From: Bacteroidota bacterium
GTDB lineage: Bacteria > Bacteroidota > Ignavibacteria > Kapaibacteriales > UBA2268
Reading direction: 5' to 3'
NCBI GenBank assembly: GCA_024278075.1
Contig: JAJRTW010000043.1
Coordinates: forward strand, 1 to 50,848
Length of the DNA stretch: 50,848 nucleotides
This document shows, piece by piece, positions 12,350 through 18,167 of this stretch. The notes below the pieces were generated by a model. The model did no database searches and was not told the DNA's origin. It worked only from the letters and a program-made list of their open reading frames with translations. How positions within the stretch are numbered: the first letter of the stretch is position 1; each line of letters begins with the position of its first letter. The position numbers were made by a program, and so were the translations under genes.

Positions 12350-14209
12350 ATGCTATATAATGATTTAATTCGAAAGCTATCTGTTCATAACGGCCAATGT
12401 GTATCGTGCAATATTATTTGGATTGCTGCCACAATAACGCTTTTTTTTCTTTGCCGTGGGATTTGTGCTTTTAGTGGGCCGTACGGCTACGAAATCATTA
12501 CATTGAAATCAATAAAGCCATCCGAATCAATACCAATAATAGTAAAATACCTGCAGCCCGATAAATCAGTTAATCGTAAGATTTTCAATGCAACAAGATT
12601 GTCGTCAACTGGCGGCAGTTTAACGAAAGAAACAATCAATATTAAAGCCGGGGTGGGAAGTGTTGTGTCGGAAGTGTCTGCAAATGCCGATTTCGAAATT
12701 ATTATAAATGGAGAGAAAACCGGAAAAATTGTAGAGTTAATATCCGATGTCCCGAAAAAATATTATGAAGGGCAGTTGGGGGCGGATGAAGTGTGGACTT
12801 CGGATTTCGAGTATTATATAACGGGTGACTTATACGTAAAAGAGGGATTGGCCCTATTAATTGAAAAGGGTACAAGAATATATATTGACAGCAAAATAAA
12901 CATATTTATTGACGGTGGTACTAACATCAATGGCACCAAGGACGAGCCGGTTGTATTCACATCATTCTTTAATGATAAGCCCTGGGGCGGTATTGTCTTT
13001 GGCCCGAAAAGTTCAATATCAAGATTCACCAATTGCATAATAACAAATGGAGGCGGCAACGACGAATACATAATGGGCCATTCGATGAGCCAGGCGGTTG
13101 TGAATATGTTGGCTGCCGATGTCACTTTCGACGAGTGCTATTTTATAGACAATACAGGAAAAGCATTTGGAGCAACCGATAGCAGAGTGACTATCTCGAA
13201 TTCCTTAATATCAAGGTGTGATACCGGAGGAGAGTTCCATACGAGCTTAGCCAATATTACCAATACCGTTGTGTCCGAGATTCCGGATAATACTGATAAT
13301 TTCATTGATGATGACAATGACGGGTTTTATTTTCTTAACCCGCACTCTTCTTCGGACGAGCCATCAATTGTCGACGGGTGTTATTTTATTAAAGGAAAAG
13401 ATGACGCCATTGACCATAACGGGGCCAAGCTAATAGTTAAAAATACATATATCGATGGTTTTACTCACGAAGGCATTGCAGCGTCTACGGACAACTTTGT
13501 TAAAGTCTTCAATTCATTGATAACAAACTGCAATCAGGGAATCGAGGCCGGCTATGGCGAGCCGGAAGTAATGGTCGACCACTGTCTGATTATCCGGAAC
13601 GATGCGGGAATTCGTTTTGGTGATTCCTATGATATTGCTTGTGAGGGGAATATGGAAATTCGCAATACAATAATTATAAAGAATGGTATTAATATCAATA
13701 ACTTTGTTAATCTGTTAGAAGGGCCATTCCCCGGCGGTATTAATCTTGGCAATACACTTCTGGACAACAGTGATTATAAAGAGGAATGTTTGAACTGTGT
13801 GATTGGCGAGGCGCTGTTTAATGAGAATTATTTATTAGTTGAAGGATCCCCGGGAAAGGCCATGGCTTCGGACGGTTTGGATATTGGGCTTGTCGATACT
13901 TTATTGAACGGCCATTTAGTATATCTTCCGGATGATGGGACAATTCCGAAAACATTTCACTTTAAATCATTTCCGAATCCGTTTTCCATAGCAACGAATT
14001 TATGCTTTGAACTGAATGAATACAGTTTCACGGAAATAGTAATAATTAATTCCTTAGGGCGGCAAATAGAAAAAATTATATTAGGATACGTAGAGCAGGG
14101 GCGGCAATGCGTTCGATGGCAGCCCGTTGGTTTAAGCAAAAGTATCTATCGGGCAATATTAATTACAAATGGCCAGGCCTCCGGAAGTATAAATATTGTT
14201 TATCAATAA
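12350..14209 (+). CDS. Secreted right-handed parallel beta-helix protein with T9SS C-terminal sorting domain
   Basis: GTKDEPVVFTS...WGGIVF, repeated beta-helix rungs, DDDNDG/DDAID acidic motifs, GSPGKAMASDG.DIG, C-terminal SFPNPFS...INSLGRQI. Start codon uncertain. Confidence 0.75.
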   Translation: MLYNDLIRKLSVHNGQCVSCNIIWIAATITLFFLCRGICAFSGPYGYEIITLKSIKPSESIPIIVKYLQPDKSVNRKIFNATRLSSTGGSLTKETINIKAGVGSVVSEVSANADFEIIINGEKTGKIVELISDVPKKYYEGQLGADEVWTSDFEYYITGDLYVKEGLALLIEKGTRIYIDSKINIFIDGGTNINGTKDEPVVFTSFFNDKPWGGIVFGPKSSISRFTNCIITNGGGNDEYIMGHSMSQAVVNMLAADVTFDECYFIDNTGKAFGATDSRVTISNSLISRCDTGGEFHTSLANITNTVVSEIPDNTDNFIDDDNDGFYFLNPHSSSDEPSIVDGCYFIKGKDDAIDHNGAKLIVKNTYIDGFTHEGIAASTDNFVKVFNSLITNCNQGIEAGYGEPEVMVDHCLIIRNDAGIRFGDSYDIACEGNMEIRNTIIIKNGININNFVNLLEGPFPGGINLGNTLLDNSDYKEECLNCVIGEALFNENYLLVEGSPGKAMASDGLDIGLVDTLLNGHLVYLPDDGTIPKTFHFKSFPNPFSIATNLCFELNEYSFTEIVIINSLGRQIEKIILGYVEQGRQCVRWQPVGLSKSIYRAILITNGQASGSINIVYQ

Positions 14210-14497
14210 CAGGCCTCCGAATAATTCGACTATAATGCCATTGCTATGCAACAGGCCTCCGATTTTCATATAAGCGCTGCTGGATTCCCATTTGAGCTTT
14301 GCTGCTTCGTCTTTTTTGGCCAGGCCATCGTTTTTCGGAGCTTTTAGGTAGTTCAACTTATTTTTTATTCAAGTTCATTGTGTTATCTTTAAGTTTGTCG
14401 TAAATTGACGAAAGTCCATTAATTATGAATTATTTACGGGAATAGAAAATATAGCTTGCTTTCTATTGTTCTATTGCCTATATTGCTTTGGACGTTA

Positions 14498-14541
14498 GTT
14501 ATCCCTTTGTTATCCCTAAGCTTTTCCTTAGCTTTCCCAAT
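14498..14541. promoter_or_regulatory. Four phased 11-bp direct repeats (putative regulator binding array)
   Basis: GTTATCCCTTT GTTATCCCTAA GCTTTTCCTTA GCTTTCCCAAT. Confidence 0.5.
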
Positions 14542-14629
14542 ATTAAGAAAAGGGAAGGCAGTTTTCTTCAACGTTAATCCGGAGGCAGCCATGATACGTA
14601 GCCCATAACCATTCCCGCTTTAGCACTCA

Positions 14630-14720
14630 CAAAAAAACCGGTGAGGAAAACCCCACCGGCCGGTAGATATGAACTTCGGCTGAGTCTCGCTAAAGAACTG
14701 CCAAAGTGCCATATCGGTTG
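14630..14720 (-). ncRNA. Putative structured small RNA ending in an intrinsic terminator
   Basis: Minus-strand long hairpin GATATG..ACTTTGGC..(loop ttagcg)..GCCGAAGT..CATATC (one G-U pair forms only on the minus strand), then ccggtgggg-tttt-cctcaccgg-ttttttt. Confidence 0.5.
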
Positions 14721-14804
14721 TTGTTAATTTACGGATTTTTTCGTAAATGCCGAAAAGTTATTTATTTTTAATTATTTTGTAAATTAATTTATTAGGAGTA
14801 TGTC

Positions 14805-15086
14805 ATGAAGAAGAAATTATTTGCAGCTTTATTTATGGTATTGTTTTTAGTATCTACATCTTTGTTCGCTTTTTTCGATTGGAGCGACACAGGCTGGACG
14901 TCAAGCAACGGGTTGAACTCTGTGGCCGGCCAAGCCTCAAATTTACAACCAATTCCAGGGGGGTGGTCTTTCTATTGTTCAGGAGATGGAATATGTTATC
15001 AAATTATTGGTGGTGGCCTATGGATTTATTCAACAGTACAGTCGCCCGAAGAAGGAGATCCATTTGTTGAAATCACAAAACAATAG
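14805..15086 (+). CDS. Small secreted Gly/Trp-rich protein with a CSGDGIC cysteine pair
   Basis: Strong AGGAG RBS, Sec signal MKKKLFAALFMVLFLVSTSLFA, ~71-aa mature peptide, followed by a terminator. Confidence 0.75.
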   Translation: MKKKLFAALFMVLFLVSTSLFAFFDWSDTGWTSSNGLNSVAGQASNLQPIPGGWSFYCSGDGICYQIIGGGLWIYSTVQSPEEGDPFVEITKQ

Positions 15087-15101
15087 TTCATCATAGATAC
15101 A

Positions 15102-15132
15102 GAAGGGAACTATTCGTTCCCTTCATTTTTTT
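15102..15132 (+). terminator. Intrinsic terminator between the peptide and lipoprotein genes
   Basis: GAAGGGAAC-tattc-GTTCCCTTC-attttttt. Confidence 0.75.
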
Positions 15133-15151
15133 ATTAAAACATTAAAGCAAC

Positions 15152-16456
15152 ATGAAAATAATTATTGTATTACTTTTACTATTATCTACTCACTGCACTT
15201 CGAATAAGGATTTGCTTAGCGATTTCAAACAGCTTAAATTAGCAGTAGATTCTACTTTACACAAGAAATCTCTTGAAGTGGCCGAACTGGTCAACATAGA
15301 AGAGTCTGAATCATTAATTCTAAATGATGTTTATGCTACTGATATTAACTTTGCAACTAATAAAATAATTGTGGCAGACCCTGTTAACAGAAGTGTAAAT
15401 ATATATAACTATAAAACCGGAAGCATTATTAATAGTGTTACATCGGGACTCAATCTTAGTGATTCATTAATATATTCTGGTAGAATCCCGCTTGACCATA
15501 CATTAACCGGAAGGCGTTTTAGATACCTTAAAAATGCAGAATATGAAGAATTTGGATTAACTCAACAAGATATAAATCTTCAAAAGAATAGATATTTTGT
15601 ACCCAAATTTGTTAGTAACGATAAGATAGAGATTTTAGCAACAATCTATGCGCCAGCTATTTCTGAAGATAATTTCACAGTATTGGATAATACTGCGGCA
15701 ATAATTAAATATGATTCAATGCTAAATTTAAAACGTGTAACTGTATTTGAAAATAGTCTGAAGGGATACTCACTTTCTTATGCGTTTCTTATAGATAAAG
15801 AACGCGGCCAATATTTATTAACCAGTTCAACTTATCACAGAACAAATACATATAAATTATTTGATTCGCTCACAGCAATATCTTTATATGATAGAAATGG
15901 TAATTTTATTAAAGTTGCTTCTTACCTCCCTGGTATCTATGAAACTGTAAAAAGCGGATATAAATTGCAATGGATGCCCAAGATAGCTCAAATTAACAGT
16001 AAACCTTTCATTGCATTCCCACTTGATTTAACAATATATGGTATCAATAGTCAAAAACGATTTAACCTTGTTAATCTTCCTTATAGTAATGATCATGGCT
16101 TTGAGTATTTCAAAAAAAATAGACGCGAAATTATGGATCCAAATGTTAGTGTTGATCGATTCAGTGAAATAAGGGATGTGATAAAAAATATATTTCCTAT
16201 TAATATTGTTGGACTCTTTTCAGTAAACAAGAACCTAATTGTTCGTGTACTTGTGTATGACGATACGGTCGAGGGTGGCTATTACTATATTTTACAGGAA
16301 TATAGCCCTTCCGGAGAATTGCTGTCGCAGACAAATATTTATGAAGATTTTAACAATAAGATTCATTATGTAACATTCGATAATGCAAATAACTACCTTG
16401 TCCTGTTCAAGAAGAGCAAGGATGGCTGGACTATGGAAAAGAGGAAATGGCAATGA
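15152..16456 (+). CDS. Probable lipoprotein with beta-propeller-like fold
   Basis: Short hydrophobic signal ending in Cys15; blade-like motifs (KIIVADP..RSVNIYN..TG, ISLYDRNGNFI, LQEYSPSGELL). The fold is inferred. Confidence 0.6.
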   Translation: MKIIIVLLLLLSTHCTSNKDLLSDFKQLKLAVDSTLHKKSLEVAELVNIEESESLILNDVYATDINFATNKIIVADPVNRSVNIYNYKTGSIINSVTSGLNLSDSLIYSGRIPLDHTLTGRRFRYLKNAEYEEFGLTQQDINLQKNRYFVPKFVSNDKIEILATIYAPAISEDNFTVLDNTAAIIKYDSMLNLKRVTVFENSLKGYSLSYAFLIDKERGQYLLTSSTYHRTNTYKLFDSLTAISLYDRNGNFIKVASYLPGIYETVKSGYKLQWMPKIAQINSKPFIAFPLDLTIYGINSQKRFNLVNLPYSNDHGFEYFKKNRREIMDPNVSVDRFSEIRDVIKNIFPINIVGLFSVNKNLIVRVLVYDDTVEGGYYYILQEYSPSGELLSQTNIYEDFNNKIHYVTFDNANNYLVLFKKSKDGWTMEKRKWQ

Positions 16457-16908
16457 AAAATCCATATATTATAGTCCCACTATTATTTGTCATTGTAATT
16501 TCAGCTTTGTCACGGAATAGTTTGTTTAATGAGATAGCAAAGCTATCCGGACTGAACGAGAACGAATTTTTACTGGTCGTTTATTTAAATCCGGCTACTT
16601 GTGTGAAATGTTATATTGAGCCATTTGATATAATAAATTATATAGAAAAAAATAAGCGTAAGGCCAAATTCAAGTATCTGGCAATGGTTAAGTGCGATCG
16701 GGAAATAGAGCTTAAAGTATTCAAAAGGGAAACCGGCTGGAAGTATTATTCCTATGTTGATGACGGGACTTCATTGAAGAAATTAGGCGGAGAGGGCAAA
16801 ACAGTAATCTCAATATTAAATCATAACGGTGAGAATCAATTGAATTTGAGAGAGATGCAAGTAATGAAAAACAGAAAATTAGTGAGAGGATTCCTAAAAG
16901 GCCTTTGA
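16453..16908 (+). CDS. Thioredoxin-like CxxC protein, exported or membrane-anchored
   Basis: N-terminal hydrophobic segment, LLVVYLNPATCVKC motif, ATGA overlap with the upstream stop codon. Confidence 0.65.
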   Translation: MKNPYIIVPLLFVIVISALSRNSLFNEIAKLSGLNENEFLLVVYLNPATCVKCYIEPFDIINYIEKNKRKAKFKYLAMVKCDREIELKVFKRETGWKYYSYVDDGTSLKKLGGEGKTVISILNHNGENQLNLREMQVMKNRKLVRGFLKGL

Positions 16909-17096
16909 AAAAACCTCAAGCGAAGCCTAATAGTTTTAGAATGGCCGGATGCAGAATACCCGTATACATTCGCCACGCTTCTCATAGTTTCTACCGGACA
17001 TTACAAAATCTCATCTAAAATTATCCATATAATCACAACAACAAATTTCTTACTCTTAGTTCCGGCAGGATCATAAAGCCTGATTAAAAAAAAATC

Positions 17097-18167
17097 TCAA
17101 GTATATTCTTTAACATTGATTTCGCCTTTCAGAGCGTAGTAAACCCCTTCGGCCAGGGCCTGCATCTCATCTTCGCCGGGATAAATCTTGACAGGTGCGA
17201 TGAATTTAACGCCATTTCTTATCCACTGCACGAGCATGGCGGAATGCGCCAGGCCACCGGTTATTAATATTGCATCTACCTTGCCGTTAACCACAGTGGC
17301 CATAGCCCCGATTTCCTTCTTAATCTGATAGGCCATCGCCCGAAACACCTGCTTGGCTTTCCTATCCTTTCGTTTAATCATTTCTTCAACTTCGGTGGCA
17401 CTGTTCGTCCCGAGGTAGGAGACAATCCCGCCATTCCCCGTAATCATCTTCCTTACCTGATGCAGTTGATATTTACCCGAGTAGCATAGCTTTACAACCT
17501 GGCCGACCGGCAGAGAGCCCGTTCTTTCAGGCGAAAACGGCCCATCGCCGTCCAAGCCGTTGTTCACATCGATTACACGCCCGTGCTTGTGAATTCCCAC
17601 GGTGATGCCGCCGCCAAGGTGGACTACAATTAGATTCAGATGCTCATATTTCGTATTGGTATCGCGGGCATATCTGCGGGCTACCGCCTTCTGGTTCAAA
17701 GCGTGGAAGATGCTCATCCTGGGGAGTTCGGGCCTGCCCGAGAATCGCGCAAGCTCCTCCAATTCATCAACCACCACGGGGTCGACTATATAAGCTTCGG
17801 CCACTTTCCCCGATTCCTTTGCAATTTCTCTGGCGAGAATTCCGCCCAGGTTGGATGCGTGTTCGCCTAACACCCCAACCCGAAGGTCTTCGATCATCGC
17901 ATCGCTTACCTTATACACGCCGCCCGGGATTGGCTTCAATAAACCGCCGCGGCCAACAACCGTATCAAAAGATTCCACGTCAATGCCGGCTTCTTTCAAT
18001 GAGTCTAATATTAATTTCTTCCTGAAATCATATTGGTCGAATGTCATTCTGAAACTGTCGAGGTCGTCGAGGCTGTGCCGGATGGTTTTGGCAAACAATG
18101 GCTTCAGGCCATCGAAGACCGCAATTTTTGTTGAAGTCGAGCCGGGATTTATTGCAAATATTCTCAT
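17097..18167 (-). CDS. buk: Butyrate kinase
   Basis: INPGSTSTKIAVF, GRGGLLKP, HASNLG, FHALNQKA, HLGGGI, GPFSPER, PGEDEM. Confidence 0.95.
   Translation of the reverse strand: MRIFAINPGSTSTKIAVFDGLKPLFAKTIRHSLDDLDSFRMTFDQYDFRKKLILDSLKEAGIDVESFDTVVGRGGLLKPIPGGVYKVSDAMIEDLRVGVLGEHASNLGGILAREIAKESGKVAEAYIVDPVVVDELEELARFSGRPELPRMSIFHALNQKAVARRYARDTNTKYEHLNLIVVHLGGGITVGIHKHGRVIDVNNGLDGDGPFSPERTGSLPVGQVVKLCYSGKYQLHQVRKMITGNGGIVSYLGTNSATEVEEMIKRKDRKAKQVFRAMAYQIKKEIGAMATVVNGKVDAILITGGLAHSAMLVQWIRNGVKFIAPVKIYPGEDEMQALAEGVYYALKGEINVKEYT

Follow-up and report, generated by a model that had tools for sequence, protein, structure and literature searches.

A three-gene block in a Bacteroidota contig

The window analyzed here is a stretch of 50,848 nucleotides (nt) from a Bacteroidota bacterium (contig JAJRTW010000043.1 of assembly GCA_024278075.1), and the subject of this report is a block of three genes within it that encode, in order, a small exported peptide with two cysteines, a β-propeller protein, and a thioredoxin-fold protein with a CxxC motif. 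An earlier note, made from the letters of the window alone, had described the block as a Gly/Trp-rich peptide gene of 93 amino acids (aa) with a Sec signal and the stretch CSGDGIC, introduced by AGGAG and followed directly by an intrinsic terminator, then a 434-aa lipoprotein gene coupled by an ATGA overlap to a gene for a CVKC protein. Each of these landmarks was found, with coordinates taken from the open reading frame (ORF) listing for the three genes:

14794-14798, plus strand: AGGAG, a Shine-Dalgarno-type site 6 nt 5′ of the peptide ATG
14805-15086, plus strand: peptide ORF, 93 aa
15102-15133, plus strand: intrinsic-terminator-like hairpin and T-run (stem-loop 15102-15124), between the peptide and propeller genes
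15152-16456, plus strand: propeller ORF, 434 aa, probable lipoprotein
16447-16908, plus strand: CxxC ORF, 153 aa as listed; likelier start at 16453, giving the 151 aa reported by the gene caller

The ATG at 16453 overlaps the propeller stop codon at 16454-16456, which forms the ATGA that had been described. AGGAG was found before 3.9% of 1622 long ORFs of the same genome, with ORF starts approximated by the first ATG, and in 0.5% of random 15-mers. We conclude that the AGGAG upstream of the peptide gene is a minority, strong-type ribosome site in this genome. The block had also been judged by eye to be richer in AT than its neighbors, and base composition bore this out: the GC content was 0.316 for the propeller gene, 0.340 for the CxxC gene, and 0.404 for the peptide gene, compared to 0.502 and 0.474 for the neighboring acetokinase-family kinase and PTA_PTB transferase genes and 0.427 for the whole genome.

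None of the three proteins matched a Pfam or NCBIfam family, in agreement with the expectation that neither the peptide nor the lipoprotein belonged to a characterized family. PADLOC models gave no family at an E value of ≤0.1 for any of the three, and PHROGs gave a single weak match for the CxxC protein (E, 0.043) and nothing meaningful for the set. Searches of the genome for paralogues by tblastn with the three proteins returned self-matches only, the next best having an E value of 0.034 or worse, and no propeller match was found in plasmid and phage collections.

The three genes recur together in related genomes

Sixty loci were collected from relatives and all ORFs within them were scored with profiles of the three proteins, which yielded a set of distinct propeller ORFs that numbered 57, of which 50 were full length. 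Neighbors were counted only for propeller genes with at least 500 bp of flanking DNA, leaving 47 for the downstream side, 46 for the upstream side, and 43 for both. A CxxC gene lay directly downstream of the propeller gene, mostly overlapping it, in 38 of 47 cases, and in 5 more the next gene was again a propeller gene, within an array closed by a CxxC gene. On the upstream side, a peptide-family ORF was present within 600 bp and on the same strand in 31 of 46 cases. The complete three-gene order was found for 27 of the 43 propeller genes with both flanks, and the proposal that the three genes form a cassette is thus supported by their neighborhoods. Other neighbors of the cassettes varied from locus to locus, and the cassette is thus autonomous. 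We conclude that the three genes constitute a conserved, recurring, and uncharacterized cassette of a group of uncultured bacteria.

The cassette is patchily distributed. Among 130 genomes from the same family-level group, a six-frame genome search detected the propeller family in 28, which represented 17 of 55 genera and often carried multiple copies. In a phylum-wide sample, 12 of 401 genomes matched the propeller, and those outside its own order gave only weak N-terminal matches; when eight of the proteins that matched only weakly outside the order were scanned, five matched DUF5128 at an E value of ≤0.01, three of them above the family cutoff. Word-index searches returned seven homologues for the propeller and two for the CxxC protein, and a search with a narrower alignment (A5) gave five genome loci and four metagenome loci.

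Several loci departed from the common order. Two propeller ORFs of one genome (G089), at L063 2050-3297 and L065 2039-3295, have no upstream peptide gene, and their signal peptide is nearly equal to that of a peptide gene elsewhere in the same genome (L045 1125-1418); they look like the products of a deletion that fused the signal of the peptide to the propeller. A divergent cassette (L070 1594-5294; G072:C2) carries a 116-aa exported, cysteine-containing ORF directly upstream of its propeller and CxxC genes, itself preceded by a second CxxC-type ORF (144 aa) and by a 353-aa ORF that was unlabeled by the profiles. Finally, in another family of the phylum (L082 30-1401; G340:C50), the gene for a different propeller lipoprotein is directly preceded by one for a 61-aa exported peptide with eight cysteines. 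We consider the latter an instance of a wider cassette type outside the family found in the window.

The first gene encodes a peptide with a conserved cysteine pair

The peptide begins with a hydrophobic Sec-type signal, read from the sequence as approximately residues 1 to 22, which leaves a mature part of about 71 aa. Residues 23 to 93 contain 11 glycines, 4 tryptophans, and exactly two cysteines (C58 and C64), the latter within CSGDGIC and forming the motif C-x5-C-Y. In an alignment of 28 family peptides (A7), G42, C58, and C64 were invariant and no tryptophan was conserved across the family. When the A7 profile was searched against 1.84 billion protein representatives, 93 clusters were matched at an E value of ≤0.001 and 49 at ≤1e-10, nearly all of them 72 to 126 aa long. 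One of the 93 was an unrelated 1858-aa thyroglobulin type-1 repeat protein, and motif counts were made on the other 92. The pattern C-x(4-7)-C-[YWF] was kept in 91 of 92 peptide clusters, and 53 of 92 had exactly two cysteines after residue 25. Most probably, the two cysteines are joined in a disulfide and thereby clamp a β-hairpin.

No convincing match to any Pfam family was found for the 28 members of the peptide family. In particular, NVEALA (PF14055) matched none of the 28, and the window peptide itself matched zero Pfam families at an E value of ≤1. In an Atlas feature comparison, an "NVEALA protein" cluster scored 0.82 with the peptide, which is below the level that counts, and a word-index search returned zero homologues.

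The thyroglobulin type-1 protein that was caught by the profile (P0080; 1858 aa) contains approximately 26 such repeats and was matched through a short C-x6-C-W hairpin motif. Homology between these repeats and the cysteine core of the peptide was considered and rejected, as hhalign gave a probability of 2% against the 26-repeat protein. Likewise, Pfam Thyroglobulin_1 matched 1 of 28 members at an E value of 0.029 and saxiphilin gave an E value of 0.014, a likeness that we attribute to a short local motif.

The second gene encodes a six-bladed propeller of a separate sequence family

The AlphaFold2 model of the 434-aa protein (mean predicted local distance difference test [pLDDT] score, 91.3) is a six-bladed β-propeller, and the structure closest to it was 3s9j, a DUF4221 protein. 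Protein-language features also placed the protein beside DUF4221 clusters (0.94). At the level of sequence, by comparison, neither DUF4221 (PF13970) nor DUF5128 (PF17170) matched any of 19 propeller family members at an E value of ≤1, and no propeller family model was reached. A DUF4221-like fold combined with no match to the sequence models indicates that the protein, as modeled, is structurally a six-bladed propeller like those of DUF4221 and yet belongs to a separate sequence family. Residues E51, D104, N313, and Y384 of the propeller are invariant.

The blade-like repeats described in the earlier note were therefore supported by the model. Cys15 is the only cysteine of the protein and lies at the end of the hydrophobic N terminus, and a histidine occupies position −1, which is atypical for a lipobox; for this reason, lipidation is regarded as probable rather than certain. 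Among 43 propeller relatives, 35 had a cysteine at the end of the hydrophobic region by a pattern of our own, 15 of them with serine at −1, and 8 had none.

The third gene encodes a TlpA/ResA-like thioredoxin-fold protein

The 151-aa protein carries CVKC (C50 and C53), C81, R83, and E86. Its AlphaFold2 model (pLDDT, 86.6) consists of a long N-terminal helix, which may be a membrane anchor or a signal, and then a thioredoxin fold in which helix 51-67 comes after strand 38-45, so that the CxxC motif lies at the start of the first helix. The best Foldseek matches of the model were of the TlpA/DsbE/ResA type (4grf, 2lrn, 3gl3, and ResA entries), with E values of 4e-5 to 6e-4 and template modeling (TM) scores of 0.54 to 0.58. 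A profile of the protein gave a thioredoxin as its best match among PDB sequences (E, 0.0043). Of 13 relatives, five matched AhpC-TSA (best E, 8.5e-8) and five matched Thioredoxin_8; the window protein matched neither. The thioredoxin-like character that had been assigned to this gene by eye is thus supported by the fold.

In 43 distinct relatives, C50, R83, and E86 were present in 43, C53 in 42, and C81 in 35. In the columns before strand 117-122, threonine or serine occurred in 27 of 43 sequences at column 117.

A hairpin follows the peptide gene at a conserved position

The terminator that had been proposed directly after the peptide gene corresponds to a hairpin at 15102-15124 with a 9-bp stem, five GC pairs, a 5-nt loop, and a T-run after it. 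The RNA of the peptide-propeller spacer had a predicted folding energy of −14.9 kcal/mol compared to −5.9 kcal/mol for shuffled sequences (z = −3.9). The equivalent spacer folded with a z score below −2 in 24 of 26 testable cassettes (median, −4.4), with sequences that were unrelated to one another and a T-run usually after the fold. A stricter pattern of hairpin plus T-run was found in 14 of 31 cassettes. The junction of the propeller and CxxC genes, in contrast, is an overlap. A hairpin conserved in position after the peptide gene is consistent with production of the peptide above the level of its partners, and judging from this anatomy, the peptide would be made in excess of the other two products or from a transcript of its own.

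Peptide and propeller diverge together in tandem arrays

The earlier note had suggested a search for paralogous cassettes in which the signal and the cysteine spacing are constant and the mature peptides are divergent, and two tandem arrays of this kind were found, in different genera. The first (L073; G119:C16:2876000-2888000) consists of a CxxC gene and then three cassettes, the last of which has two propeller genes, with a further propeller-like ORF after it. In the second (G144, L057), two units were compared, and the comparison ended at the end of the propeller gene. Identity between units of each array was as follows:

G119 array, upstream DNA and signal-peptide codons: 97-100% identical
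G119 array, mature peptide and propeller codons ~1-275: 44-77% identical
G119 array, 3′ third of the propeller gene and CxxC gene: 90-100% identical
G144 array, upstream DNA and signal-peptide codons: 94% identical
G144 array, mature peptide plus propeller codons as far as ~275-285: 48-66% identical
G144 array, rest of the propeller gene: 84-96% identical

The same mosaic was apparent in the proteins of the first array, where mature peptides were 30 to 73% identical, signal peptides were 96 to 100% identical, and three of four CxxC copies were 98 to 99% identical. From this pattern of identity we conclude that a single variable module, comprising the mature peptide and the N-terminal two-thirds of the propeller, is set between constant flanks.

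A proposed cognate pair of peptide and propeller with its own thiol-disulfide enzyme

We put the probability at about one-half that the cassette encodes a cognate peptide-propeller pair together with a dedicated thiol-disulfide enzyme. The first gene would supply a Sec-exported mini-protein of approximately 70 residues with one disulfide clamping a β-hairpin. The second would supply the cognate partner of the peptide, a DUF4221-like six-bladed propeller that is usually lipid anchored and that could act as a receptor, a carrier, or a protective protein; in the tandem arrays, the two diverge together, the peptide in its mature part and the propeller over its first two-thirds, within near-identical surroundings. 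The third, translationally coupled to the propeller gene, would supply a membrane-anchored TlpA/ResA-like protein that acts as a dedicated thiol-disulfide catalyst with the peptide as its substrate, and the terminator-type hairpin would set peptide output above that of the two partners.

The peptide is suggested as the substrate by two observations. Outside the CxxC protein itself, the two cysteines of the peptide are the only free thiols encoded by the window cassette, as Cys15 is the only cysteine of the propeller. Moreover, the genome (96.7% complete) gave no match for DsbB, VKOR, Thioredoxin_4, or DSBA, and thus appears to have no general DsbA/DsbB/VKOR machinery. One MauE-family gene was present (C242:21755-22138), with no cassette near it.

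The weakest step is the biological role, which is most likely that of a polymorphic recognition or antagonism module made up of a secreted peptide and a matching protective or receptor protein. Patchy distribution, multicopy arrays, low GC content, and the variable module all point in this direction. A tentative extension, less probable than the cognate pair itself, is that the cassettes are a class of polymorphic peptide/partner system of the Fibrobacteres-Chlorobi-Bacteroidetes (FCB) group, in which each cell would secrete a disulfide-clamped mini-protein and carry a propeller with first four blades specific for that peptide variant alone. The pairs would be swapped as modules between constant flanks, with promoter and signal on one side and the propeller C terminus and thioredoxin gene on the other, to serve as toxin and immunity protein or as a tag of self and nonself. 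A complex prediction for the mature peptide (A7, residues 23 to 93) and the propeller (A8, residues 20 to 434) gave a best score of 0.11 against a mark of 0.32, a value that, obtained without controls, says nothing for or against binding.

A number of observations weigh against the interpretation as a cognate pair with its own enzyme. For the coupling of peptide and propeller, crude mirror-tree-style distances over 27 cassettes gave Spearman coefficients of 0.14 for peptide and propeller, 0.15 for peptide and CxxC protein, and 0.45 for propeller and CxxC protein; by this measure, family-wide coupling of peptide and propeller appears weak and no stronger than that of peptide and CxxC protein. 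For the enzyme, the cis-proline position was not conserved in the 43 relatives, proline being present in 6 at the nearest column (115). TlpA/ResA-type proteins are usually reductants, and the genome contains one DsbD (C23:7235-7876), so the CxxC protein may reduce rather than oxidize. For the peptide itself, 3 of 92 family peptides look lipid anchored, the C-terminal tail of the mature peptide is rich in acidic residues, and its sequence gives no sign of a membrane-active bacteriocin. Neither is there an export or processing gene in or adjoining the window cassette: in a cell with two membranes, the Sec pathway by itself takes the peptide no farther than the periplasm, with no evident route across the outer membrane.

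The last point of this kind concerns the cassette itself. No upstream peptide gene was detectable for 15 of 46 propeller genes, and one such locus (L012 5255-9119; G006:C42) consists of a tandem run of three overlapping propeller genes that ends in a single CxxC gene and includes no peptide-family gene. Such loci indicate that the propeller and CxxC genes can stand without a peptide. The functional unit might be the propeller and the thioredoxin-fold protein, as a split counterpart of the fused thioredoxin-NHL proteins NHLRC2 and SOQ1 that acts on other envelope substrates, the small gene being an optional or unrelated passenger. This explanation is unlikely given that a peptide-family gene lies immediately upstream and on the same strand for 31 of 46 propeller genes, with the peptide family found in such a context at each of those 31 loci, that the mature peptide diverges with the N-terminal part of the propeller in two arrays, and that the mature propeller of the window has no cysteine on which the CxxC protein could act.

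Somewhat more doubtful is the idea of the propeller as an extracytoplasmic enzyme that acts chemically on the peptide, modifying or processing it by cyclization, amidation-type chemistry, or hydrolysis, such that the cassette makes a modified peptide. Least probable among the alternatives is a peptide signal with its receptor in a quorum-sensing-like circuit, for which a secreted small protein is indeed paired with a matched, binding-type fold and the features of the peptide gene would fit high expression. Against it, the propeller has no output domain, a folded protein of 70 residues has no evident route across the outer membrane, and no regulator, kinase, or transporter is conserved beside the cassettes, the neighbors differing by locus and those of the window being a β-helix protein and metabolic genes. 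We therefore favor a cognate pair with a dedicated thiol-disulfide enzyme.

Surroundings of the cassette in the window

The interval 14209-17097 holds only the three cassette genes, and the flanks are occupied by a β-helix protein gene on one side and the acetokinase-family and PTA_PTB genes on the other. The first of these (12350-14209, plus strand) encodes a 619-aa protein with a right-handed β-helix region (Pfam Beta_helix; E, 1.4e-10), the C-terminal stretch of which resembles, by eye, a sorting domain for type IX secretion. Just 5′ of the cassette, at 14636-14661, a strong terminator-like hairpin (11 pairs, 7 of them GC, with a T-run) was found on the minus strand, where no minus-strand gene adjoins it. 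No terminator-like site belonging to the minus-strand acetokinase-family gene (17097-18167), in turn, lies between that gene and the cassette. Taken together, these two observations suggest that the AT-rich cassette may sit between the acetokinase-family gene and the former terminator of that gene. Gene order downstream of the kinase gene was not kept in the seven relatives inspected.

Relation to known systems

The earlier note had set the locus against a background of Bacteroidota loci with short, cysteine-containing peptides of the NVEALA type. The neighborhoods of Bacteroidota with NVEALA (PF14055), DUF5128/DUF4221 propellers, and TlpA-like proteins, known from databases, are of the same three-part kind; the window peptide is itself not an NVEALA member, and none of the window proteins reaches those Pfam models. 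No paper on NVEALA, DUF4221, DUF5128, DUF4934, or such a three-part cassette was present in the literature searched. The window peptide differs from NVEALA-type peptides in having one cysteine pair rather than many and a distinct N-terminal half rich in glycine and aromatic residues, and in contrast to NVEALA-type neighborhoods its family is concentrated in one family-level group. With the DUF4221/DUF5128 propellers, the window propeller has the six-bladed fold in common but not the sequence models. We conclude that the cassette is a sequence-distinct, unusually simple variant of a recurring, unpublished three-part architecture.

Two systems resemble the cassette in part. In methylamine dehydrogenase, mauA, mauB, and mauD encode together a small cysteine-containing subunit, a large propeller subunit, and a thioredoxin-like accessory protein for the disulfides of the small subunit. 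In mau the propeller is seven-bladed, and the small subunit contains six disulfides together with a cofactor that a di-heme enzyme makes from tryptophan, whereas the window cassette has two cysteines, no tryptophan conserved across the family, no heme enzyme, and no MauE. In NHLRC2 and SOQ1, a thioredoxin-like domain is fused to a six-bladed NHL propeller; by contrast, the window cassette has two separate, coupled genes with a small exported third partner and no sequence similarity at the level of family models.

The loci of bacteroidetocins (class IIf bacteriocins of Bacteroidales) are a published precedent in that a small secreted cysteine-containing peptide is encoded beside a thiol oxidoreductase devoted to it, the phylum being described as devoid of general disulfide-forming machinery (PMC6671954). 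Deletion of the oxidoreductase attenuates toxin activity, which the authors tie to the absence of general disulfide machinery in Bacteroides (PMC6671954). Bacteroidetocins have a double-glycine leader, a peptidase-containing ATP-binding cassette (ABC) transporter, and a protein with five transmembrane segments, but neither a propeller nor an identified immunity protein (PMC6671954). The window cassette, in contrast, has a Sec signal, no transporter, and a propeller as constant partner.

Significance of the cassette

Six-bladed propeller lipoproteins accompanied by small cysteine-containing peptides and thioredoxin-like proteins abound among Bacteroidota and related groups, and the branch found in the window is unusually simple, with one cysteine pair, a mature propeller without cysteine, and no other partners. 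The hairpin conserved in position and the module that covaries within constant flanks turn a vague neighborhood into one that can be tested, and together they provide cognate and noncognate pairs for assays of binding and killing. The cassette also offers a clean system for the study of extracytoplasmic disulfide formation in organisms without DsbA/DsbB. If the reading as polymorphic pairs is true, it would assign a function to the DUF4221/DUF5128-type propeller lipoproteins of Bacteroidota, which are large and so far unstudied families.

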